This document shows positions 15,279 to 28,317 of a stretch of DNA of 64,000 nt, one piece after another. The stretch is from Escherichia phage 04086. The DNA lies in the sequence record OR842557; one strand, 5' to 3'. The notes beneath the pieces were generated by a model that was not told the origin of the DNA, did not search any database, and saw only the letters and a list, made by a program, of their open reading frames with translations. Every line of letters begins with the position of its first letter. The stretch's first letter is position 1. Made by a program: the position numbers and the translations under genes.

Positions 15279-15578
15279 ATGATTTTAACCGAACAAGAAA
15301 CTATTCGTCTCCGTGAAAAAGTCAAGACTATTTTGTCTGTTGGTTTTCACGAAGTCCTGTTTGAAAAAGCTGATGGTAGTGCCCGTCGTATGACTTGTAC
15401 TCGCGACTTAGACCTGCTGCCGTATAAAGAAGTCCAGGCCCCTGGGCCAGAAGCCAATAAAGAACCTGTTAATTATATCAGAGTATTTGATACCAAGGTT
15501 AATGATTGGCGCTCATTCCGTTTCGATAAGCTGATTTCTATTAACGGCCTTCAGACTGAAACTCTGCTTGTCCTGTAA
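15279..15578 (+). CDS. Hypothetical protein (99 aa)
   Basis: ORF tightly packed after previous one. Confidence 0.5.
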   Translation: MILTEQETIRLREKVKTILSVGFHEVLFEKADGSARRMTCTRDLDLLPYKEVQAPGPEANKEPVNYIRVFDTKVNDWRSFRFDKLISINGLQTETLLVL

Positions 15579-15580
15579 TA

Positions 15581-15605
15581 TGCTTTAAGAATAGCGTGTT
15601 ATTAT
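15581..15605 (+). promoter_or_regulatory. Candidate MotA-dependent middle promoter (TGCTTTA box, 12 nt, TATTAT) for gene 31
   Basis: MotA-box-like motif at correct spacing from a -10-like hexamer, ~30 nt upstream of gene 31 ATG. Confidence 0.5.
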
Positions 15606-15636
15606 TAATCTATCAACAAAACAATATGGATTAAAT

Positions 15637-15960
15637 ATGGAACTTCCTATTAAAGCGGTCGGAGAATATGTTATTCTCGTTTCCGAACCAAAACAAGCTG
15701 GTGATGAAGAAACTACTGCATCTGGTATCGTTATTGGCAAACTTCATCAAGGTGAAATCCCTGAACTTTGTGAAATTTATTCTGTAGGACCTGATGTCCC
15801 TGAAGATTTTTGTGAAGTAGGCGATTTGACTCCACTTCCTGTTGGTAAGATTGCTAACGTGCCTCATCCGTTGGTTGCATTGGGTATTAAACAACCTAAA
15901 GAAATTAAACAAAAATTCGTTACCTGTCACTATAAAGCTATTCCTTGCCTTTATAAGTGA
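15637..15960 (+). CDS. 31: Co-chaperonin (GroES-like) Gp31
   Basis: 107 aa; strong match to T4 gp31 ([21 protein letters not shown]...[18 protein letters not shown]...[32 protein letters not shown]). Confidence 0.85.
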
Positions 15961-15968
15961 TATAAATA
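15961..15968 (+). promoter_or_regulatory. TATAAATA late-promoter-like box between 31 and rIII
   Basis: Exact octamer; about 140 nt upstream of rIII ATG, so assignment is uncertain. Confidence 0.35.
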
Positions 15969-16106
15969 ATAATATGGATTGGCTGCCGGACTAGTTAGTT
16001 AACCGGAGAATCCTAAGCGGTGGACTACAACTGAGAGACTTGCCGAAAGGAAGTGAAATTCAGAAGAACGTGTCCACCAATCTTTATCTCGAATTGAGAA
16101 ACTAAA

Positions 16107-16355
16107 ATGAACAAACAATTGAATCACGCTCTTGAACTGCAACGCAACGCTTGGAACAACGGTCACGAAAACTACGGCGCATCTATTGATGTTGAAGCCG
16201 AAGCACTGGAAATCCTGCGTTATTTCAAACATCTGAATCCTGCTCAGGCTACTCTGGCTGCTGAACTGGAAGCTAAAGATGAACTGAAATTTGCTAAGCC
16301 TTTGGCTTCAGCAGCTCGTAAAGCAGTACGTCATTTTATTATTACCCTGAAGTAA
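16107..16355 (+). CDS. rIII: Lysis inhibition accessory protein rIII
   Basis: 82 aa; near-identical to recalled T4 RIII (MNKQLNHALELQRNAWNNGHENYGASIDVEAEALEILRYFKHLNPAQATLAAELE.KDELKFAKPLASAAR.AVRHF..TLK). Confidence 0.85.
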   Translation: MNKQLNHALELQRNAWNNGHENYGASIDVEAEALEILRYFKHLNPAQATLAAELEAKDELKFAKPLASAARKAVRHFIITLK

Positions 16356-16430
16356 GTTAAATCGAGGAGCCGTCGAACTGTTTGATTAATGATTTGCGAA
16401 TCATTATAGTTTTAAGACCCCAACAGTTTT

Positions 16431-16462
16431 ACGGTGTACCTCTTGAATGTATTTTGTACTAT
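16431..16462 (+). promoter_or_regulatory. Possible early promoter (GGTGTACC, 16 nt, TACTAT), same architecture as the one at 16831
   Basis: Shared ggtgtac...tactat layout with the promoter upstream of 16901 ORF. Confidence 0.35.
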
Positions 16463-16617
16463 CACGCGTCAGAAAAAGGTTATCTGTCTAAGTCGTGGTT
16501 GGTATGATGACGAGGTTTATGGTTATCCTGTCGTTAAATATCCGAAACCTATGTTCCCCTTGAGGGCTTGCGCAGGCAACGCTAATAAGTCCTGCATCCT
16601 AATTTAAGAGATTTAAA

Positions 16618-16779
16618 ATGGCTAAGAAAGAAGTTAAAGTAGTTGACGGTACCTCTAAACGCGCTGGTTACAAGCGTGCGTCCAACAAGCGTATCAATCA
16701 GGTAGTTGATAAGCTTCAAGCTCGTGCTCGTGCAGTATTGCGTGCAGATGCTGCTTGCTTTGGTAAGCCTCAGGCATAA
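16618..16779 (+). CDS. Small basic protein (53 aa), not in ORF track
   Basis: ATG at 16618 (MAKKEVKVVDGTSKRAGYKRASNKRINQVVDKLQARARAVLRADAACFGKPQA*), followed 6 nt later by a strong terminator hairpin. Confidence 0.45.
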   Translation: MAKKEVKVVDGTSKRAGYKRASNKRINQVVDKLQARARAVLRADAACFGKPQA

Positions 16780-16784
16780 GTTAT

Positions 16785-16809
16785 GGGACTCTTCGGAGTC
16801 CCATTTTTG
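16785..16809 (+). terminator. Rho-independent terminator (GGGACUC-UUCG-GAGUCCC + AUUUUUG)
   Basis: 7-bp GC-rich stem, UUCG tetraloop, U tract. Confidence 0.75.
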
Positions 16810-16830
16810 TTTCTAAATCTTTAAAAAAGG

Positions 16831-16859
16831 GTGTACATCTCCGGTAGGCATGATACTAT
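16831..16859 (+). promoter_or_regulatory. Early promoter (GTGTACA, 16 nt, TACTAT) within promoter/stem-loop cassette
   Basis: Inverted repeat tgtacat...atgtacc brackets the promoter; followed by aaactggagaataaaATG module. Confidence 0.5.
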
Positions 16860-16900
16860 AGACATGTACCAAATAATACTAAAACAAACTGGAGAATAAA

Positions 16901-17233
16901 ATGAAAACTGTAAATCTGAATGCATCTGTTAAAGCTAAATGTTTCAACGGTGAATATCAAGAAACCATGTGGGTCCTGACTGCAGTTGAAGGTGATATCA
17001 TCGAAGTTGAAACAACTGAAGGTATGGGTACTGATTTTACATTCACCATCGAGCTTCACAACTTCTTTACAGGTTGGATTTATGAACTGAAAACTGTAAT
17101 TACTGGTCGTATTGAAGAAAACAAAAATGGTGAATTCTATTATGTTAATGCCCGTACACGTGCTGAACGTCTGATTGCTCAGATGAAAAAAGTTGGTAAA
17201 CTTGATATGAAAAATTGGAATGTTGTGAAATAA
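16901..17233 (+). CDS. Hypothetical protein (110 aa)
   Basis: ORF with conserved initiation module aaactggagaataaaATG. Confidence 0.55.
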   Translation: MKTVNLNASVKAKCFNGEYQETMWVLTAVEGDIIEVETTEGMGTDFTFTIELHNFFTGWIYELKTVITGRIEENKNGEFYYVNARTRAERLIAQMKKVGKLDMKNWNVVK

Positions 17234-17237
17234 ATGT

Positions 17238-17266
17238 TTTACTTTGGTACAGGTTGTGTTATTATA
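17238..17266 (+). promoter_or_regulatory. Early promoter (TTTACT, 17 nt, ATTATA) embedded in 12-bp inverted repeat tttggtacaggt/acctgtaccaaa
   Basis: Perfect 12-bp inverted repeat flanks the -10; followed by aaactggagaataaaATG module. Confidence 0.55.
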
Positions 17267-17306
17267 GACCTGTACCAAATAATACGAAAACAAACTGGAG
17301 AATAAA

Positions 17307-17672
17307 ATGAACTACATCAACTTCGAACGTAAATATGTTTCTAACGGTATCGCTGGTTCTTCTGAAGTTATTTGCCTGTGGAAACACAACAACGGCGCGG
17401 TGTGCGAAATCGAACAGTGCATGACTCCTAACTACGTTTATATGCGCTTTGAAAATGGTATTACGGTTTCAATCACATTGGAAGGTTCTACTTTTAAAAT
17501 CGCTTTAGATGATGATTTCCGTCAACGTGATTTAGGTACCCATCCTTGCTGGAACGGTGTTAATCGTAAGCTTCTGGTTAAAACTTGGATTCGTCACATC
17601 CTGAGCAACCGAGCTAAACCTGAACACCTGGAAGCAATCTTTGATGTAGTTCTGAACGAATTCGACATCTAA
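17307..17672 (+). CDS. Hypothetical protein (121 aa)
   Basis: ORF with conserved initiation module aaactggagaataaaATG. Confidence 0.55.
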   Translation: MNYINFERKYVSNGIAGSSEVICLWKHNNGAVCEIEQCMTPNYVYMRFENGITVSITLEGSTFKIALDDDFRQRDLGTHPCWNGVNRKLLVKTWIRHILSNRAKPEHLEAIFDVVLNEFDI

Positions 17673-17683
17673 TCTTAAAAATG

Positions 17684-17702
17684 GAGGCTTCGGCCTCCTT
17701 TG
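17684..17702 (+). terminator. Stem-loop GGAGGC-UUCG-GCCUCC followed by UUUGAGG (weak terminator / RNA structure)
   Basis: 6-bp GC stem with UUCG loop right after 17307..17672 stop. Confidence 0.5.
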
Positions 17703-17713
17703 AGGAAAATATT

Positions 17714-18001
17714 ATGTTTATGACCACTTATTTTGATACTCGTAAAAATTTCTGTGAAGTTGTTTTCTCTAAAGCAGGTAAAGATGTTCCTGCCGACAAA
17801 CAACCTACTCGTGAATCTATTAAGGCTTATGCCGATGTTGTATGCCCGGTAGAATTCCGTACTGTTAATGGTCGTGATACCCTAGCAATCACTAAGCTAA
17901 ACCATGATATCAATATCGACCCAAGTGTCGCCCGTGAAGTCAATACCTCTGACATCTATGGTGGTAATGTTAAATCACATGGCTTTCAGATGAGGTTCTA
18001 A
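17714..18001 (+). CDS. Hypothetical protein (95 aa from ATG 17714)
   Basis: ATG 17714 preceded by GAGGaaaatatt; the longer track ORF from 17681 would begin inside the hairpin. Confidence 0.5.
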   Translation: MFMTTYFDTRKNFCEVVFSKAGKDVPADKQPTRESIKAYADVVCPVEFRTVNGRDTLAITKLNHDINIDPSVAREVNTSDIYGGNVKSHGFQMRF

Positions 18002-18195
18002 TGCAACTATTCTTATCACAAACTGTTCAGCTAAAAGGTGTAGGTATTCCTGGAATGATTTCAAAGGTTCTACCTGCTTTTAAATTAGGTAATGTTACTA
18101 TTAAAGAAGCCTACACCGTCCTATGGGTCGATGGAACTGAAGATGTTCGCATGGGTGGTGAACTGTCTGTAATCAAATGTTTAAAGCGAGGATAA
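18001..18195 (+). CDS. Hypothetical small protein (64 aa)
   Basis: ORF overlapping previous stop. Confidence 0.4.
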   Translation: MQLFLSQTVQLKGVGIPGMISKVLPAFKLGNVTIKEAYTVLWVDGTEDVRMGGELSVIKCLKRG

Positions 18196-18196
18196 T

Positions 18197-18409
18197 ATGG
18201 TTAAGAAATTGATTCAGAAATTATTAGGTACGGAAATGGTCGAAGTGACTTATCGTGTAACTGATTTATCTCCTGTGCATCCGCAAGATGAACCATATAC
18301 TAAAACAATTAAAATGCTGAAATCTGATGGCGGATTATCTATTGAAGACCGTCTACCTGGTTATGGTCATTGGGCTGATGTCGAAATTATAAGTGTCAAA
18401 GATATTTAA
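18197..18409 (+). CDS. Hypothetical 70-aa protein, paralog A
   Basis: MVKKLIQKLLGTEMVEVTYRVTDLSP...; RBS aagcGAGGataat. Confidence 0.5.
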   Translation: MVKKLIQKLLGTEMVEVTYRVTDLSPVHPQDEPYTKTIKMLKSDGGLSIEDRLPGYGHWADVEIISVKDI

Positions 18410-18418
18410 GGAATCTTC

Positions 18419-18631
18419 ATGATTAAGAAATTATTTAAAAAGCTGTTTGGCTTGGAACTGGTTGAAGTGACTTATCGTGTTATTGATTTATCACCGCCAT
18501 ATGCTTGCGATGAAGATGCTATTAAAACTGTTGTTATGCGAAAAACATATCGCGGGCAGTCAATTAAAGAAAGATTGCCAGACCATGGCATGTGGTATGC
18601 AACCAAGATTATCGGTGTCAAAGATGTCTGA
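18419..18631 (+). CDS. Hypothetical 70-aa protein, paralog B
   Basis: MIKKLFKKLFGLELVEVTYRVIDLSP...; same length and clearly homologous to 18197..18409. Confidence 0.5.
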   Translation: MIKKLFKKLFGLELVEVTYRVIDLSPPYACDEDAIKTVVMRKTYRGQSIKERLPDHGMWYATKIIGVKDV

Positions 18632-19082
18632 GTTAGAAATAAGAAGCAATTTTCCATGGCCATCATGTGCATTAAGTAACTTTGCTAAATGGCCTTTCGT
18701 TATGGATGGTATCCAATTTGGTGGGCTCGAAGGATTCCTCCAAGGATGTAAGGTGAGAAATCATGAACAACAAAAACGTATATTTGGGATGTCCGGTCTG
18801 GCAGCACAAAAAGCTGGACGAACTTATGCTAGGGCTCAGGACCGTGGCACGTTGTTCTGGCTTGGAACTCCCATTTCAAGATACTCTACAGCATGGAAAG
18901 AGTTGTACGAAAATGCTTATTTTGAAGCAGCGATCCAAAACCCAGGATTCCGCGACGCATTACAAGCTACAAAGGGCAAAGTTTTAAAGCATTCGATGGC
19001 GAGCCACCTTACAGAATGTGATACAATACTAACTGAAAAAGAGTTTATCGACATCCTAAACAAATTGAGAGATTTATTATGA
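18624..19082 (+). CDS. NADAR (YbiA/DUF1768)-like protein
   Basis: ATG 18624 overlaps previous stop (ATGTCTGA); LSNFAKWPFVMDG....LEGFLQGCK and FRDALQAT resemble the YbiA/NADAR motifs FSNFAAWP..VDG..W.S.EHYFQA.KF and LRALLLAT (recollection, not searched). Confidence 0.5.
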   Translation: MSELEIRSNFPWPSCALSNFAKWPFVMDGIQFGGLEGFLQGCKVRNHEQQKRIFGMSGLAAQKAGRTYARAQDRGTLFWLGTPISRYSTAWKELYENAYFEAAIQNPGFRDALQATKGKVLKHSMASHLTECDTILTEKEFIDILNKLRDLL

Positions 19083-19717
19083 AACCAGTTATCTTAACAG
19101 ATATCGATGGAGTATGTTTAAGTTGGCAGTCCGGCTTGCCTTATTTCGCACAGAAATATAATTTGCCTTTAGAACATATTTTGAATATGATTCAGGACGA
19201 ACGTTTCTTATCTCCGGGCGAGCTGTTTAATTGTGATAATGAATTAGGCGCTCGTTTAATCGAGAAATATAATCAGTCAGATTTTATTCGTTATCTGTCT
19301 CCTTACATGGACGCATTAAAACATATCAACAGGCTCAAAAAAGACTTCGATTTTGTAGCCGTGACTGCGCTAGGCGACTCAATTGATGCCCTGCTGAATA
19401 GACAATTCAATTTGAATGCTTTGTTCCCTGGCGCATTCAAGGAGATTCTGATGTGTGGTCATTCAGAATCAAAAGAAGACCTCTTCATAAGAGCTAAAAA
19501 TACGTACGGTAAACGTATTAAGTTTTATGTTGATGATTTGGCTCACCACTGTGATGCTGCATCTAATGTTCTCATGGATATCCAAGTTTATTGGTTAGCT
19601 CGTGGTGAACGTGACTTTAAACCTAATTTAGCCGTAAAGGTTAATTCATGGGACGATATCGCAGCAATCGAATCCCTTCGTAATAATGCCGCAGTTGAAT
19701 GGATTGCTCGAGGTTAA
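19079..19717 (+). CDS. HAD-superfamily hydrolase-like protein (possible nucleotidase/phosphatase)
   Basis: N-terminal ILTDIDGV (DxDG motif I of HAD enzymes); 212 aa. Confidence 0.5.
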   Translation: MKPVILTDIDGVCLSWQSGLPYFAQKYNLPLEHILNMIQDERFLSPGELFNCDNELGARLIEKYNQSDFIRYLSPYMDALKHINRLKKDFDFVAVTALGDSIDALLNRQFNLNALFPGAFKEILMCGHSESKEDLFIRAKNTYGKRIKFYVDDLAHHCDAASNVLMDIQVYWLARGERDFKPNLAVKVNSWDDIAAIESLRNNAAVEWIARG

Positions 19718-19718
19718 T

Positions 19719-19997
19719 ATGTTTGTAGTTCATACAATTTCAGACTATGGTCCTACCACTACAATGGATTATGGTCATGTAAACCAGTTTATTCGTCATG
19801 TGAATCATGATTACTCATTTGATGTAAATCCGGCTAAAGACCATCCTGTTTGGCGCGAATGCGTCGAACAGGGATTCATTTATGTCCACTTTATGTCCAA
19901 GTTCAAATCTGATGGGCGAATGAGATTTGTGTTCTCTTATCATAAGCGATTAGACTTGCTTTTGGCTGATGTGGCTTATAATAGAATCCATGACTAA
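19719..19997 (+). CDS. Hypothetical protein (92 aa)
   Basis: ATG at 19719 just after HAD-like stop. Confidence 0.45.
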   Translation: MFVVHTISDYGPTTTMDYGHVNQFIRHVNHDYSFDVNPAKDHPVWRECVEQGFIYVHFMSKFKSDGRMRFVFSYHKRLDLLLADVAYNRIHD

Positions 19998-20007
19998 TGA
20001 GGTGATT

Positions 20008-21531
20008 ATGATTTTAGATATTTTAAACGAAATTGCTGCTATTGATTCTACTAAAGCTAAAGAAGCCATTATTGCTCGTGAAAAGGACAATGAGCTTCTG
20101 AAACGTGTTTATCGTATGGCTTATACCCGTCGTCTGAACTACGGTATTAAAAAGTGGCCAGAACCTGGATTTACATCTCAATCCTTTGGTATGATTACTC
20201 TTGAAGACCTTCTTGATTTCGCTGAATTCACATTAGCCACACGTAAGATTACGGGTAATGCGGCTATTGAAGAATTGGCTCAAATCATTGCTGATGCTAA
20301 GGCCCCGGATGCCGAGGTATTACGTCGTGTAATGATGCGCGACCTTGAATGTGGTGCATCGATTTCTATTGCTAACAAGGTTTGGAAAGGTTTAATCCCT
20401 GAACAACCGCAGATGTTGGCGAGTTCTTATGATGAAGCTTTGATTAAGAAAAATATTAAATGGCCAGCGTTTGCTCAATTAAAAGCTGATGGTGCTCGTT
20501 GTTTTGCCGAAGTTCGTAACGATGGTGTGACATTCCTTACTCGTGGTGGTAATGAATATCAAGGGCTTAATCTTTTGGCTGCTGAATTAATGGCCATGAC
20601 CGAAGAAGCTCGACAACGCCATCCTAATGGCGTTATGATTGATGGCGAATTAGTTTACCATACTCCTAAGGTAGAACCTAAAGCATCTAATGATTTGTTT
20701 AGTATGTTTGACGAGGAACTTCCTGAATTAAGTAAGGCTAAGGAATTCCAAACTGTCGCCGATCGTTCTACGTCAAATGGCTTGGCTAACAAAGCTCTTC
20801 AAGGAACTATCACTCCATCCGAAGCAGCCGGTATGGTATTACAGGCATGGGATTATGTCCCGCTGGATGTCGTGTATTCTGAAGGCAAAATTAAAGGCGA
20901 TAAGTACGATGTACGCTTTACGGCCTTAGAACTTATGGTTGCTCATAATGTCGTATTGCATGGCAAAACGCGTGTTGAAGCTATCGAAAACCAGTGGGTT
21001 AATAATCTTGAAGAAGCTAAAGTCGTTTATAAAAAATATGTCGACCAAGGTCTGGAAGGTATTATCCTTAAGAACATGGACTCCTACTGGGAAAACCGCC
21101 GTTCTAAGAATCTTATCAAGTTCAAAGAAGTAATCGATATCGCTTTAGAAGTGGTAGGTTATTATGAACACTCGAAGGACCCTAACAAACTTGGTGGCGT
21201 CGAGTTAGTATCACATTGTCGTCGAATTACAAGTGACTGTGGCTCAGGCTTTAAAGATACTACCCATAAGAAAGATAAATCAGGTAAAAAGGTATTGATT
21301 CCACTGGAAGACCGTCCTGATTTAGACCGTGAACTTCTTATGAAACAAGCTCGTGAAGGTAAGTTGATTGGACGTATTGCTGACTGTGAATGTAATGGTT
21401 GGGTTCATTCTAAAGGACGTACCGATACTGTAGGTATTTTCCTTCCAATCATTAAAGGTTGGCGTTTCGATAAAACAGAAGCTGATACATTTGAAGATGT
21501 ATTTGGTGATTGGTCTCAAACTGGACTATAA
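20008..21531 (+). CDS. 30: ATP-dependent DNA ligase
   Basis: 507 aa from MILDILNEIAAIDSTKAK; collinear with T4 gp30 incl. adenylation motif AQLKADGARCFAEVR and GLEGIILKN, KFKEVIDI. Confidence 0.9.
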   Translation: MILDILNEIAAIDSTKAKEAIIAREKDNELLKRVYRMAYTRRLNYGIKKWPEPGFTSQSFGMITLEDLLDFAEFTLATRKITGNAAIEELAQIIADAKAPDAEVLRRVMMRDLECGASISIANKVWKGLIPEQPQMLASSYDEALIKKNIKWPAFAQLKADGARCFAEVRNDGVTFLTRGGNEYQGLNLLAAELMAMTEEARQRHPNGVMIDGELVYHTPKVEPKASNDLFSMFDEELPELSKAKEFQTVADRSTSNGLANKALQGTITPSEAAGMVLQAWDYVPLDVVYSEGKIKGDKYDVRFTALELMVAHNVVLHGKTRVEAIENQWVNNLEEAKVVYKKYVDQGLEGIILKNMDSYWENRRSKNLIKFKEVIDIALEVVGYYEHSKDPNKLGGVELVSHCRRITSDCGSGFKDTTHKKDKSGKKVLIPLEDRPDLDRELLMKQAREGKLIGRIADCECNGWVHSKGRTDTVGIFLPIIKGWRFDKTEADTFEDVFGDWSQTGL

Positions 21532-21532
21532 T

Positions 21533-21715
21533 ATGAAAGCTTATTTAGAAACCGTGGTTATTGGATATAAAGAAGGTGGGGATGTCTCCACTGCAGTGTC
21601 CCAAATTGTCCTTGAATTTGAAAATGAAATCGCATTCGCTGATTTTAAAGATAATTTCGACCGCTATGAAAAGGGTCCTAAATTTGAAGTATACCGTACG
21701 TTGCTACCACTTTAA
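21533..21715 (+). CDS. Hypothetical small protein (60 aa)
   Basis: ATG overlapping ligase stop; followed by terminator. Confidence 0.4.
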   Translation: MKAYLETVVIGYKEGGDVSTAVSQIVLEFENEIAFADFKDNFDRYEKGPKFEVYRTLLPL

Positions 21716-21734
21716 GGCCTTCGGGCCTTTTCTG
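21715..21734 (+). terminator. Rho-independent terminator (AGGCC-UUCG-GGCCU + UUUCUGG)
   Basis: GC stem, UUCG loop, U-rich tail after ligase operon. Confidence 0.6.
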
Positions 21735-21765
21735 GCATAAATAAGGTTATTAAAGAGGAATTATT

Positions 21766-23661
21766 ATGTCCGAACAATTGAATGAGGTATTTGACGGCGC
21801 TATAGATTTATCAGCTGTCAATTTAAACCCTAAACTTAAAGTACCACAGATTTGGAATATAAAGGCTGAAGGTAATGAGAACCTTGTTGCACGCATGGTT
21901 TCATATACTTCTGAAGGTGATACAATCCGCCAAGTTAAACCGGGTGACAAATACGTTCATATTATTTTAATGAGCCTATCATCTAAAGGGGCCCCGGCAG
22001 AACTCAAAGGTGGTTTAGGTAGTAACCCCATTTCCGCTATTCGTTCTATATTTGATACGGTTTATGAACAAGTTAAAAAGCTCCGTATGGATGCCGTTAT
22101 GTTCCGTTTTCCTACTAAGAAAATGAAAGGTCAGGAAAAAGCTGTACAACGAGTTCTAGCCAAATTAATAGCTACTAGAGCAGGTGGGCAATTCAAGGTC
22201 CTTGATGCCTTGTATCAATATACAGGCAAACATTCATATGTTTTTATCTATCGTAAAAATAAAAATATAGAATCAATAAACGGTATTCCTAATATTAATC
22301 CGGAATTGTATACTAAAGTCGAATCTGAAGTCGGTGATGTGTATGTTTCAAAGAAAACAGGCGAAGATGTTACCAAATTAGAAGCTATAGCTAAGTCTAT
22401 AGACGAAATAGAAAAATCACGTTCTGATAAAATGGTTATAACCAAGACTAAGGTTTCTAAACGGGCCGCTATAAATGCGTTATATTCTACCGCCGAGCCT
22501 ACAGGATTGAGTAAATTTTCGGCAGAGCACAAAAAAGCTTATGCAGATTATTCTGCTACTAGTTCCGTTCATTCTTCTGAAGATTCTAAAGAAAGCCAAA
22601 TAGCTTTAGCCAGTAATAAAATATTAAAAGACGCCTCTAAAGAAATGGCAGAATATTTGGATTATATTTTTAACGGTGTTAATCCATCATTTGAAGTAGA
22701 CGAGCGCAAACTTAAACTAATTGCTGATATAAAGTTTGCTTTAGAGGCATCAGATTCTTTAGATAAATCTAATAGTGTCATAGAGGCTTTAAAATCAGGT
22801 AAATCTCATGTAGACATTCTTAGACTAGTCGCTGCGGCCCTTTTAGATGATTCAGTTAAAGGTACTTGGGCTAGAGAATCTAAAATCAAGGAAGTAATAA
22901 AATCCTTAGTAGCAGTTTATACAAAATCTATCCAACCGTTGTTTAAGATATCTGATAATCCTAATTTATCCAAACCTCAAGAAGAGGCAGTCAAAAAGTA
23001 TACTCGTGGCGGCTACAACCATATAAACAACTTTTTGCTAGGTAAAACAGATACCACCGATGAAATGATAAAAATGATTGGTGAGTTGGATTCTACATTT
23101 GAAAATGGTACAAAACTTCCTAAAGGAACCATAGTGTATCGTTCTCAGATAATGCCTACCGAAATGGCTTTGAATTCTATAAAACATAAGGTGATGTATC
23201 TTCCTATTTTTGCATCAACTTCATTGGCTCCTAATATTTTCGGTGAAATGGGTCATGCTCAATCCAACTTAGACCCTGAAGCTCTTTCTAGCGATATAGA
23301 TAGTAATCTTGAAGACACCATTAAAAGTGCGACCGGAAGTGCTAGAGATACCATTAAGCTAGGGCTAATTATTAAAGGTGCTGATAAAATTAAGGTTATT
23401 GTGCCCGGTGACTTGGCTAATTGGTCTACAGAAACCGAAGTAATTCTTCCTCGTGGGGTTATGCTTAAGATTAATAAAGTATACGGTGCTTCCAAGGGAC
23501 CTATGGGTTCAATTGGTAAATATGTTTTAGTGGAATGTGAAGTTGTAGCTACAGAGCAAATCACAGAGGAAAATTCATATAGCACCGGATTCTCGTTTGG
23601 AAATTATGATAGAATTATGTATGAAGATTCTATGGAAAAATTAGCAAATTTATTTAAATAG
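21766..23661 (+). CDS. Alt-like ADP-ribosyltransferase paralog 1 (631 aa)
   Basis: Conserved Alt N-terminus (NLNPKLKVPQIW...MDAVMFRFPTKKMKGQ) and C-terminal ART motifs (YTRGGYNHINNFLLG; VYRSQ; FASTSL; ETEVILPRG). Confidence 0.8.
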   Translation: MSEQLNEVFDGAIDLSAVNLNPKLKVPQIWNIKAEGNENLVARMVSYTSEGDTIRQVKPGDKYVHIILMSLSSKGAPAELKGGLGSNPISAIRSIFDTVYEQVKKLRMDAVMFRFPTKKMKGQEKAVQRVLAKLIATRAGGQFKVLDALYQYTGKHSYVFIYRKNKNIESINGIPNINPELYTKVESEVGDVYVSKKTGEDVTKLEAIAKSIDEIEKSRSDKMVITKTKVSKRAAINALYSTAEPTGLSKFSAEHKKAYADYSATSSVHSSEDSKESQIALASNKILKDASKEMAEYLDYIFNGVNPSFEVDERKLKLIADIKFALEASDSLDKSNSVIEALKSGKSHVDILRLVAAALLDDSVKGTWARESKIKEVIKSLVAVYTKSIQPLFKISDNPNLSKPQEEAVKKYTRGGYNHINNFLLGKTDTTDEMIKMIGELDSTFENGTKLPKGTIVYRSQIMPTEMALNSIKHKVMYLPIFASTSLAPNIFGEMGHAQSNLDPEALSSDIDSNLEDTIKSATGSARDTIKLGLIIKGADKIKVIVPGDLANWSTETEVILPRGVMLKINKVYGASKGPMGSIGKYVLVECEVVATEQITEENSYSTGFSFGNYDRIMYEDSMEKLANLFK

Positions 23662-23669
23662 GATAGATT

Positions 23670-25751
23670 ATGACCCAATTAAATGAAGTGTTCGAGTCCG
23701 AAGGTACACTGCCTGTTGTGAACTTGAACCCAAAACTTAAAGTACCTCAGATTTGGAAGATTGGAGACGCGGAGTCTCAGTTAGTAGCACGTATGGTATC
23801 CTACGCTTCTGAAGGTGATGCTATTAAACAAGTTAAAATGGGTGATAAATATGCCCACGTTATCCTTATGAGCCTTTCAGCTAAAGGTTCGCCTGCCGAA
23901 CTTAAAGGCGGCTTAGGCCCTACTCCTGTAGATGCGATTAATACTATTTTTGATGTAGTTTATGACCAAGTTAAAAAGCTTCGTATGGATGCCGTGATGT
24001 TCCGTTTTCCTACCAAGAAAATGAAAGGTCAAGGCCCTATCGTTCAACGTATTATCCAACGTTTGGTAGCACAGAAAACCGGTGGACGTTTTAAAGTGGT
24101 TCCGGCTATGTACCAATTTACCGGTAAACATACTTACATCCTGGTAGTCCGTAAACAAGCTGATATCGAAGATATCAAAGGTATGCCTGGAATTAATGCT
24201 GAATTGTATACTAAGGTAGATTCTGATGTCGGTGAAGTTTATATTTCCAAAAAAGAAGGTGTGCAGGTTACTAAAGAAACTGCTATTGCTGGCAGTATTG
24301 CTAAGGTTGAAGAACGTCGCACTGATAAAATGGTTATAACCAAGACTAAGATTTCTAGGCGCGCCATTGCAGCAAGCCAATCATTGGAATCTTATCGTAA
24401 TGAAAGTGAATTGTTTAAGAAATATGAAGCTACTGCAGCGGATTTTAATAAACCGGCAACAGTTCCATTAATCCCTGAGGCTCAGGAAATGGTTACTAAT
24501 AACAATTCTCCTGCGGCTAAAAATAAGGTTGCTAATATAGTGGCTGAAGGCACTGCTGAAGAATTGCATTACGATTATAAAATGTTTCCTCTTCACGGTA
24601 TAGGTGAAATCCAAGAGAAAATTAAAGAGAAAATTCTTACAGCAATAAAAAACGAACCTTTGACATCTGTTAAAGCTCTAGAAAAATATGCCTCTGCTAT
24701 TAATACCGTTTTCGAAGAATACAAAGGTGAATGGCTGGCTATCCATAACAGAACTCGTAAAGGCCAACCTGATGACCTTTGGAACGAATTGACAGAGGCC
24801 AAGTGGAAAGCAGCCAAGACTAAGTTCATTAAAAAACGTGTATATAGTTTTGCTGGTGTGGGTGGCGGTATTATGGTTGATATTACTATTGCTCGTGAGG
24901 GCTCTAAATATACCCCATCACAAAAGCGCGGAATCAGAGAATATTGTGGTTCAGGATATACAGACATAAATAATCTTCTTTTAGGACGTTATAATCCTCA
25001 GAACTATGAGGTTATGAGCGAAAAAGATATCGAATCTGCAGTTAATAATTTGGATTCTGCTTTTGAAAACGGCGACCGTATACCAGAAGGCATCACAGTT
25101 TATCGCGCACAGAGTATGACTGCTCCTATATACGAAGCACTAGTTAAAAATAAAGTGTTCTATTTCAGAAATTTTGTATCTACTTCTTTAACTCCTATCA
25201 TTTTCGGACGTTTTGGTGTTACCCACGCAGGTATTGGTCTTTTAGAACCTGAAGTTCGCAATGAATTGACAGTCGATAAAAATGAAGAAGGAATAACTAT
25301 TAACCCTAATGAAATAAGAGCGTATAAAGAAAACCCTGATTACGTTAAAGTTCAAATAGGATGGGCAATTGATGGAGCCCATAAAGTTAATGTCGTATAT
25401 CCAGGAAATCTCGGAATAGCAACTGAAGCCGAAGTTATTCTGCCGCGTGGATTAATGGTCAAAGTTAATAAAATAACAGATGCTTCTAATAATGATGGAA
25501 CAACATCTAGTAATACAAAACTCATCCAAGCTGAAGTTATGACAACAGATGAGCTTCAAGAATCTGTGGTATATGATGGTGACGTACTAATGGAAACCGG
25601 CGAGCTGGTCGTGTATCAAGATGATTTCGATACTTCCGAAAGCCCTGTATCTTTTGATTCATTTGTTAAATCTACACGGTTTGATGTACTGCCTCTTTTG
25701 GCTTCATGCATAGACCTCTATGACATCCCAGAAAAATTCATCCAAGGGTAA
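23670..25751 (+). CDS. alt: ADP-ribosyltransferase Alt (closest to T4 Alt; 693 aa)
   Basis: Collinear with recalled T4 Alt incl. YTPSQKRGIREYCGSGYTDINNLLLGRYNP, VYRAQ, FVSTSL, EAEVILPRGLMVKVNKITDASNNDGT, C-terminal ASCIDL..P.KF.QG. Confidence 0.85.
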   Translation: MTQLNEVFESEGTLPVVNLNPKLKVPQIWKIGDAESQLVARMVSYASEGDAIKQVKMGDKYAHVILMSLSAKGSPAELKGGLGPTPVDAINTIFDVVYDQVKKLRMDAVMFRFPTKKMKGQGPIVQRIIQRLVAQKTGGRFKVVPAMYQFTGKHTYILVVRKQADIEDIKGMPGINAELYTKVDSDVGEVYISKKEGVQVTKETAIAGSIAKVEERRTDKMVITKTKISRRAIAASQSLESYRNESELFKKYEATAADFNKPATVPLIPEAQEMVTNNNSPAAKNKVANIVAEGTAEELHYDYKMFPLHGIGEIQEKIKEKILTAIKNEPLTSVKALEKYASAINTVFEEYKGEWLAIHNRTRKGQPDDLWNELTEAKWKAAKTKFIKKRVYSFAGVGGGIMVDITIAREGSKYTPSQKRGIREYCGSGYTDINNLLLGRYNPQNYEVMSEKDIESAVNNLDSAFENGDRIPEGITVYRAQSMTAPIYEALVKNKVFYFRNFVSTSLTPIIFGRFGVTHAGIGLLEPEVRNELTVDKNEEGITINPNEIRAYKENPDYVKVQIGWAIDGAHKVNVVYPGNLGIATEAEVILPRGLMVKVNKITDASNNDGTTSSNTKLIQAEVMTTDELQESVVYDGDVLMETGELVVYQDDFDTSESPVSFDSFVKSTRFDVLPLLASCIDLYDIPEKFIQG

Positions 25752-25754
25752 ATA

Positions 25755-28317
25755 ATGGAAAATTTAAACGAGGTTTTTGATAGTGATTCCGCTAAAAACT
25801 ATCCAGTAACAAATCTTAAACCGGGTTCCGGTATTCCACAGATTTTCTCTATCCAAGCACCAGGTAACGATAACCTGGTTGCTCGCATGGTATCTTATGC
25901 GTCTGAAGGCGACGCTATTAAGATGGTTAAGGCGGGCGATAAGTACGTCCATGTTATCTTAATGAGTTTATCTGCTAAAGGCGCTCCGGCAGAACTCAAG
26001 GGCGGTTTGGGTACCGATCCACTCGGTACACTGAACACCATTTTCGATACCATATATGAACAAATAAACAAACTTAAAATGGACGCGGTTTTATTCCGTT
26101 TCCCTACTAAGAAAATGAAAGGTAAGGGCCCTACCGTTCAGCGCGTATTAGCTCGTTTGGCTATGGCCCGTACCGGTGGTAAGTTTAAAGTTGTTGACGA
26201 CATGTTCCAATTCAGCGGAAAACATACCTACGTTCTTTTAGTACGTCGTGGTGCTAATATTGAAGATATCAAGGGTATGCCTGAAATTAATGCCGATCTT
26301 TATACTAAAGTTGAGTCTAAAGTTGNAGGTCCTACCGTTCAGCGCGTATTAGCTCGCTTGGCTATGGCTCGTACCGGTGGTAAGTTTAAAGTTGTTGACG
26401 ACATGTTCCAATTCAGCGGAAAACATACCTACGTTCTTTTAGTACGTCGTGGTGCTAATATTGAAGATATCAAGGGTATGCCTGAAATTAATGCCGATCT
26501 TTATACTAAAGTTGAGTCTAAAGTTGGCGAAGTGTATGTTTCTAAGAAAACCGGCCAGGCNTAAGGGCCCTACCGTTCAGCGCGTATTAGCTCGTTTGGC
26601 TATGGCCCGTACCGGTGGTAAGTTTAAAGTTGTTGACGACATGTTCCAATTCAGCGGAAAACATACCTACGTTCTTTTAGTACGTCGTGGTGCTAATATT
26701 GAAGATATCAAGGGTATGCCTGAAATTAATGCCGATCTTTATACTAAAGTTGAGTCTAAAGTTGGCGAAGTGTATGTTTCTAAGAAAACCGGCCAGGCCG
26801 TAAGTAAGGTCGAAGCAGTAGCGGCATCTATTGCACAAGTTGAAGAGAAACGTACCGATAAGGCTGTCATTACCCGTACTAAGATTTCCCGTCGTATGGC
26901 AGCAGCCGCGCAGTATTCTACTGCTGAGCCTGAAACTTTGTCCCCTAAAGAATTGCAGGTTTATAACGAGTTTGAAGCTTCTGTACCGGTTCACACGGCT
27001 GAAGGCCCTGAGAATGAAGGTATTGAACAGATTAGTCAGAACTTTAAAAAAGGTGCTATTACTAAAATGCGCCAGGCTTCTCAGTTTAAATCTAAGAGCG
27101 AGGACCTTGCCAACTTTAGATACACTATTGCCCTCACGCACGCTTTAATGACTGATAGTAAATTTAAACTAAATTATGCTAATAGAGATAAACAAGGGTT
27201 TGAAATTTACTCTAATAATATGGCATTTTTTAATACAGAAGTCGATAGACTTTTAAGTGGTCTTTCGCAAATCAATACAACCAATAGTCTGGATATTATT
27301 AAGAAAATTGTTAATAACTTGAGTGCTCGTTTTAAGGGTTCCCCTTCAGAAAAGGCCTCTCGAATTGCTTTCGCTATGGAAGCCGTTTATAAACTGGTTA
27401 ACGATTCTATTAGTGATGCATATGCTTATTCAGGCGAGCTCATTAAACCTAAGGACCTAACCAAAGACGAAAGCAATGCTATTATTGAATATTGCGCAGC
27501 TGAATATGCTCCTATGAACTTATTCCTTTTAGGTAAACCTGAATCCGAAAACAATACAACGGCTATTAAATTGATTAAGGATTTAGACTCAGCATTTACT
27601 AAGGGTATTAAACTTCCTAAGGGTACTATTTTGTATCGTGGTCAGGATTTGCCATACAAAATTCTGCGCCATAATATCGATAACAAAACATTTTACTTTA
27701 AGAACTTTGTGTCAGCCTCATTAAAGCCTAACATCTTTGGTGAATTTGGTAAAAATTATATGGCCCTCGACAACCAAGCCGTTTTTGTTGGCGGCGAAGG
27801 TTCTTTATCCTCCGCTGATGAGTTGTTTAAATTGGCTAGCGGTAGTTCATCTGATGTGGGTGAAGTCGATGACGAAGAGGTAGAATGGGAAGAAGACGAG
27901 TTCGGTAATCCAATTGCGCCCGAAGGTCCTGCGGATAGAATTGCTGAAATTGGTATGGTTATTCGAGGTGCTGAAGCAGTTAAAGTTATCGCTCCTGGTG
28001 ACCTTACAGAATATGCCGAAGAAGCAGAAATTATCCTTCCGCGTGGGTTATTGTTGAAGGTTGATAAAGTAGCGGCTTTTGCTATGAATGATAGAGTATC
28101 TCACAAATACCTTATGGAAGCTACCGTAACACCTCCTTCAGAGCTCAGTGAATCTGTTTACGATGGTGACCATTTGATGGAAACTGGTGAAGTTCGCCTG
28201 ATGGACGGCTTTAAACAGTTCTTGGTTAGTGAATCCATTTCTGAAAGTAACGAGGCTATGGAAATCCTTGCTGCATCTTTGGATATCTCTTCTTTATCAA
28301 ATAAATTCAAAATGTAG
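25755..28317 (+). CDS. Alt-like ADP-ribosyltransferase paralog 3; frame broken by two inserted duplicate copies (n at 26326 and 26561)
   Basis: Alt-like N-terminus plus C-terminal motifs YRGQ, FVSASL, EEAEIILPRG and an acidic insert (VDDEEVEWEEDEF); ~700 aa after removing duplicates. Confidence 0.75.
26118..26795. repeat. Three direct copies of a ~233-bp alt-3 segment separated by n (26326, 26561)
   Basis: Repeated GPTVQRVLARLAMARTGGKFKVVDDMFQFSGKHTYVLLVRRGANIEDIKGMPEINADLYTKVESKV. Confidence 0.9.

Follow-up and report, generated by a model that had tools for sequence, protein, structure and literature searches.

The window, by which we mean the whole 64,000-nucleotide stretch of Escherichia phage 04086 (sequence record OR842557) that was analysed, carries at 18624..19082 on the plus strand an ORF that opens with an ATG at 18624, closes with a stop codon ending at 19082 and encodes a protein of 152 amino acids, the pieces of which read in order MSELEIRSNFPWPSCALSNFAKWPFVMDGIQFGGLEGFLQGCKVRNHEQQ...GFRDALQATKGKVLKHSMAS...EKEFIDILNKLRDLL. 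The first-pass annotation had described a 152-aa ORF here and quoted two motifs from it; both the coordinates and the motif strings are found in the sequence. In a DNA comparison the surrounding region shows 96-98% identity with T4-like coliphages of the WG01/LHE83/QL01 group (Dhakavirus), WG01/LHE83 being the closest among the matches listed. Given that Pfam identifies the neighbouring genes as gp30.8 (PF06019), gp30.7 (PF06919), gp30.1 (DUF3045) and an ATP-dependent DNA ligase, and that the gene order is that of T4 (30.8, 30.7, ..., 30.4, 30.3, 30.2, 30.1, 30 (ligase), alt), the locus is the '30.x' block of T4, as the earlier placement of the ORF in a 30.x accessory block had it. The slot in question, between 30.4 and 30.2 and upstream of the ligase gene, is part of a gene order common to T4 and RB69. 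The features of the locus are as follows.

18197..18409 and 18419..18631, plus strand: two tandem 70-aa paralogs, 30.4-like, both phrog_2042, directly upstream of adfN
18624..18631, plus strand: overlap of 8 nt, ATGTCTGA, where the upstream 70-aa 30.4-like ORF stops and adfN starts (read from the sequence)
18624..19082, plus strand: adfN (gene 30.3 ortholog), a phage-type NADAR and predicted guanine-ADP-ribose DNA glycohydrolase; motif strings ALSNFAKWPFVMDGIQFGGLEGFLQGCK at residues 16-43 and GFRDALQAT at residues 108-116 of the 152-aa protein
18729..18731, plus strand: codon GAA for Glu36, the predicted catalytic glutamate (T4 AdfN E36), invariant in 56 sequences and aligned with the Glu of TSEHYFQAQK in YbiA
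18750..18752, plus strand: codon AAG for Lys43, the predicted catalytic lysine (T4 AdfN K43), invariant in 56 sequences and aligned to the YbiA Lys
18990..18992, plus strand: codon CAT for His123, the subfamily-defining residue, invariant in 56 sequences and following the last beta-strand of the model (E120-122)
19035..19076, plus strand: intact C-terminal alpha-helix, residues 138-151 (in the model, pLDDT about 92-98)
19079..19082, plus strand: overlap of 4 nt, ATGA, where adfN stops and 30.2 starts (read from the sequence)
19079..19717, plus strand: gene 30.2 ortholog, HAD-like, with a DIDGV motif, 212 aa, phrog_420
19969..21531, plus strand: ATP-dependent DNA ligase, gene 30 (PF01068, E=1.9e-23)
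21766..23661, 23670..25751 and about 25755..28317, plus strand: three tandem Alt-like ADP-ribosyltransferase genes (PF03496), downstream of the ligase gene

The 152-aa ORF is a genuine gene. Pfam assigns the protein to PF08010 (Phage_30_3) with E=4e-65 and 218.2 bits against a gathering cutoff of 36, covering model positions 2-138 of 138, and tblastn finds homologs in 1510 phage records; together these two results exclude a chance ORF. The 8-nt overlap with the 30.4-like gene looks like a translational-coupling arrangement, and T4 has the identical 8-nt (30.4/30.3) and 4-nt (30.3/30.2) overlaps. When 15500..22000 was scanned for promoters and terminators, promoter-like sites were not enriched (14 found against 18.6 expected) and there was no notable site of either kind directly 5' of adfN, which is consistent with read-through expression within the 30.x block. 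Further upstream there is a terminator-like hairpin with a T-run behind it (ATGGGACTC-TTCG-GAGTCCCAT, 16783..16804), just 3' of a 53-aa ORF (16618..16779) that occupies the slot annotated gp30.9 in WG01; one transcription unit may end at this hairpin, ahead of the 30.8-30.1 block.

Within this shared layout the locus differs from that of T4 on both sides of adfN. Upstream, the 30.4-like gene is duplicated, where RB69 has a single gene and T4 has 30.4 plus 30.5. Downstream, gp30.2 is 74% identical to T4 gp30.2 (278 aa) over 194 aa but lacks the C-terminal extension, some 80 residues long, that is found in T4. The part of gp30.2 shared with T4 gives a weak Pfam match to NT5C, and a sequence search of the PDB with gp30.2 returned weak, non-significant matches only, among them a 5'(3')-deoxyribonucleotidase (E=0.31). 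The +1 frame inside adfN, at 18763..18987, is the counterpart of an overlapping ORF annotated in T4 as 30.3' (74 aa). No stop interrupts it over 76 codons in 12 of 13 close relatives; in three of them, however, the ORF that begins with ATG is cut to 53 codons, and distant gp30.3 homologs do not preserve the open frame. We therefore rejected the 30.3' counterpart as a conserved gene; probably there is none.

The relationship of the protein to the NADAR superfamily emerges at the level of the family. The profile search proposed earlier gave no hit with the protein itself, in that PF08719 (NADAR) was not matched at E<=0.1 in the Pfam search; an NCBIfam search likewise returned no match, and in PHROGs the protein matches only phrog_652, of 'unknown function'. 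A single-sequence phmmer search of the PDB found E. coli YbiA at E=0.79 only and, with this search so weak, the NADAR link needed a family profile, hhalign and fold searches. Using a family alignment of 56 homologs (36-93% identity), we found that: (i) 17 of the 56 members match PF08719 individually, the best at 1.5e-7; (ii) YbiA (2b3w) heads the PDB matches of the family HMM, with E=0.0039; and (iii) hhalign places the family on YbiA with a probability of 93.9% and an E-value of 1.6e-7, aligning 91 columns, with window residues 15-122 falling on YbiA 27-124. These comparisons argue that the gp30.3 family is homologous to bona fide NADARs, significantly so at the family level.

The predicted structure points the same way. 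The AlphaFold (AF2) model of the window protein has a pLDDT of 94.4 and a pTM of 0.90, and a Foldseek search with it gave a probability of 1.00 only for YbiA (2b3w) and for a Phytophthora NADAR in complex with ADP-ribose (8bau). The structure prediction suggested in the first-pass annotation thus yielded a NADAR fold and, taken with the family-level PF08719 matches and the hhalign result, it upholds the assignment to the NADAR superfamily made there. As modelled, the product would be a minimal, core-only NADAR-fold protein whose C-terminal EKEFIDILNKLRDLL forms the helix of residues 138-151.

The catalytic residues allow the placement to be refined. All 19 residues that are invariant across the 56-sequence alignment are present in the window protein, E36, K43 and H123 among them. 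E36 and K43 fall on the E-x6-K pair of YbiA, and an E-x6-K pair following the SNF motif, by which NADARs are recognised, is present. H123, on the other hand, lines up with YbiA E125 (...GKVLKHSM... against ...AKLVEHT...). The residue at this last-strand position divides the superfamily, with Glu in the YbiA family, Asp in the DarT1-associated (BC4488) NADARs and His in the phage gp30.3 NADARs (PMC11125620, PMC11543638, PMC12945103). [quoted passage not shown] Nor does it resemble a DarG1 of the BC4488 type, since the residue is His and not Asp and a scan of neighbouring ORFs between 16618 and 28317 showed nothing DarT-like; the ADP-ribosyltransferases near adfN are the PF03496 Alt-like enzymes, at least 2.7 kb away.

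The closest characterised relative is T4 gp30.3. By BLASTP the two proteins align from end to end without a gap, 130 of 152 residues being identical (86%) and 140 of 152 positive, and the 22 substitutions are mostly conservative, with none at an invariant position. Both belong to PF08010, are 152 aa long, occupy the same genomic slot, conserve E36, K43 and H123, keep the C-terminal helix and have the same three PDB NADAR structures as their sole fold matches, although T4 is a Tequatrovirus and the window phage a Dhakavirus-like T-even relative. The window gene is accordingly an ortholog of T4 gene 30.3 in syntenic position, with the fold, the catalytic residues and an intact C-terminus.

A good deal is known of the T4 protein. 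Its family was placed in the NADAR superfamily in a bioinformatic survey by de Souza and Aravind, as cited in later papers. In work by Johannesman et al. (Nat Commun 2025; PMC11825919), gene 30.3 was identified as the source of resistance to DarTG1 in T2 and T4 and given the name adfN, for anti-DarT factor NADAR. It was also shown that: (i) deletion of adfN makes T4 sensitive to DarTG1; (ii) T4 AdfN rescues RB69 on DarTG1; (iii) purified T4 AdfN strips ADP-ribose from DarT1-modified DNA; (iv) the substitutions E36A and K43A impair function; and (v) truncation of the C-terminal helix lowers activity (PMC11825919). Hydrolysis of guanine-ADPr by T4 gp30.3 in vitro was reported independently (PMC11125620), with further in vitro work in PMC12945103 and a treatment of the NADAR mechanism in PMC11543638. 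The T4 enzyme acts on guanine-ADPr only, T-ADPr and C-ADPr not being removed (PMC11125620, PMC11825919, PMC12945103). On the other hand, in uninfected cells T4 AdfN fails to neutralise DarT1, and the rescue that it gives to phages other than T-evens is weak (PMC11825919, PMC11125620), from which the authors suggested that an additional, T-even-specific factor seems to be needed (PMC11825919).

We consider it highly probable that the window gene, as the ortholog of T4 adfN, encodes a guanine-ADP-ribose DNA glycohydrolase that defeats DarTG1. With its full length, its invariant residues and its C-terminal helix, the window allele has everything on which the activity of T4 AdfN is known to depend and, by analogy with T4, the allele would be active and the window phage resistant to DarTG1. 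The scenario we favor is that, on infection of a DarTG1 host, the DarT1 toxin would attach ADP-ribose to guanine N2 in phage DNA, and that this modification would block phage replication. AdfN would then hydrolyse the guanine-ADP-ribose bond using Glu36, Lys43 and His123, the DNA would be restored and the phage could replicate, with AdfN acting, in effect, as an 'orphan antitoxin' that mimics DarG1. The first-pass annotation had called a phage NADAR a plausible anti-DarT factor, and this view gains from the experimental demonstration of the function in the 86%-identical T4 AdfN (PMC11825919). By the same token the anti-DarT role of such a NADAR is already known, and there is nothing conceptually new in it.

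Comparison with other NADARs helps to define what kind of enzyme this is. The DarG1/BC4488 antitoxins (the Geobacter lovleyi NADAR, PDB 8bat, and the E. coli C7 NADAR) have Asp at the last-strand position, carry additional elements at the N-terminus, are about 190-220 aa long, are encoded beside DarT1 and are active as antitoxins in uninfected cells. The phage protein, in contrast, has His, is core-only at 152 aa and has no adjacent DarT, and its T4 version does not rescue cells from DarT1 toxicity outside infection. E. coli YbiA (2b3w; PF08719) is about 21% identical to the phage protein, with Glu125 against the phage His123; its gene shares a LexA-controlled operon of the host with dinG, and YbiA, unlike the T4 NADAR, also removes C-ADPr (PMC12945103). 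AdfN-Bas32 and AdfN-Bas60, from T5-like and Vequintavirinae phages, are like gp30.3 in being guanine-specific orphan phage NADARs that counter DarTG1 (PMC11825919), but they were acquired independently from other NADAR branches, need no T-even context and lie outside PF08010. RB69 provides a further comparison: its gp30.3, at the same locus and 85% identical over the shared part, is frameshifted to 137 aa and ends ...DTILT without the last helix, whereas the window allele runs at full length through its C-terminus. RB69 is sensitive to DarTG1 as a result of a 1-nt insertion that truncates the allele by 15 residues, with loss of the last helix (PMC11825919).

Gene neighbourhoods were compared across phages in two ways. 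In the first, 80 viral gp30.3 loci were searched with a 30.2 HMM, absence being scored within 6 kb. A 30.2 homolog was present only where the ligase-centred T4 synteny persists, and about 55 of the 80 loci had none within 6 kb. In the second, every ORF in the +/-2.5 kb around distant gp30.3 homologs (66 distant loci) was entered into a clustering, and no conserved neighbour was found in these intervals beyond ligase (9/66) and 30.2 (8/66). The idea that 30.2, translationally coupled to adfN, is the missing T-even cofactor or the partner in a conserved module gains no support from these loci, as 30.2 tracks DNA ligase and not gp30.3 across phages; within the T-evens it may still hold. The gp30.3-type genes are genuine 'orphans'.

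Among the alternatives, the one that survives best, although we regard it as improbable, is that the window protein is an active NADAR whose main substrate is something other than DarT1-modified phage DNA, be it guanine-ADP-ribosylated RNA, the products of other host ART toxins (YarT-like or ScARP-like) or a small-molecule N-glycoside. NADARs from all families remove RNA G-ADPr in vitro (PMC12945103), E. coli YbiA is annotated as an N-glycosidase with a proposed small-molecule role in riboflavin metabolism, the full activity of T4 AdfN depends on the T-even context (PMC11825919), and the distant gp30.3 homologs have no conserved neighbour to fix their function. Against this, deletion and complementation genetics in T4, T2 and RB69 tie gene 30.3 specifically to DarTG1 resistance (PMC11825919), and the range of alternative substrates is narrowed by the failure of the T4 NADAR to remove either T-ADPr or C-ADPr, as cited above.

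Further alternatives touch on the Alt-like genes. That the genome holds three Alt-family genes was an earlier claim that the PF03496 matches and the annotation of WG01, where the three are likewise given as Alt-like enzymes, both confirm. The first two paralogs (21766..25751) share only 41% identity with each other and 34% and 48% with T4 Alt; alt is a single gene in T4 and RB69, so the window lineage has an expanded and diverged set. In the window the third gene is split into overlapping ORFs at 25755..26564 (269 aa) and 26449..28317, while WG01 has a single 707-aa gene. It contains a direct duplication, 99% identical, with copies at 26328-26560 and 26566-26798 spaced by 238 nt and, since 238 is not a multiple of 3, the frame is shifted and the gene is split. 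The result resembles the alt.-1/alt.-2 remnant of an alt duplication in T4, although the duplication could be an assembly artefact.

The apparent need of T4 AdfN for a T-even factor, taken together with the three tandem Alt copies, leaves room for a more speculative reading, in which the gp30.3 NADAR has a second role, or a partner, within the phage itself. Some T-even protein might bring it to phage DNA that is being replicated, or it might clean up ADP-ribosylation of nucleic acids by the phage's own ARTs. We hold this to be quite unlikely, and the co-occurrence tests (the 30.2 HMM at 80 loci and the clustering at 66) lend no support to the adjacent 30.2 as the partner, although the gene for a partner could lie elsewhere. 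Less likely still is the narrower notion that the gp30.3 NADAR is the eraser for the phage's own Alt ARTs, reversing or limiting self-inflicted ADP-ribosylation, which is close to the earlier remark that the phage both writes and potentially erases this modification. What speaks for it is position: the three Alt-like ART genes lie 2.7-9 kb downstream of adfN on the same strand, and adfN and alt are also co-located in T4 and RB69. Alt-type enzymes, however, modify arginine side chains of proteins. The linkage cleaved by the NADARs tested so far is, by contrast, that of guanine N2 to ribose in nucleic acids (PMC11125620, PMC11543638, PMC12945103), and the guanine-ADPr specificity of the T4 enzyme, with thymidine and cytidine adducts left in place, leaves the pairing of writing and erasing unsupported. 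Moreover, in flanks of about 6 kb around the 66 distant gp30.3 loci, 57 had no ligase homolog and 62 had no Alt homolog, and it was ligase, not Alt, that appeared in the +/-2.5-kb clustering. With Alt mostly absent at the distant loci and alt in the same place in T4 and RB69, the proximity of adfN to Alt is inherited T-even synteny. That the window allele is decayed or inactive and kept by synteny only, for which the inactive natural allele of RB69 and several truncated gp30.3 database entries (89-126 aa) offer precedent, is equally hard to credit in the face of a full-length allele that keeps every invariant residue and the C-terminal helix and gives a compact, high-confidence model.

We therefore return to adfN as the anti-DarTG1 gene of this phage. 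In WG01, LHE83, ABTNLS3 and nearly all records among the matches listed, the ORF is labelled 'hypothetical protein', and the immediate gain is one of annotation, in that the gene can be named adfN, an anti-DarTG1 counter-defence NADAR. The history of the gp30.3 family now runs from the prediction of a NADAR in 2012 through an in vitro assay in 2024 to a counter-defence gene in 2025. Should the second, phage-internal role be borne out, the NADAR would be part of a phage-encoded circuit of reversible ADP-ribosylation and more than an orphan antitoxin. On the reading we prefer, an intact adfN allele predicts that the window phage would resist DarTG1-carrying E. coli, and this prediction would be useful for forecasting host range and for the choice of therapeutic phages.
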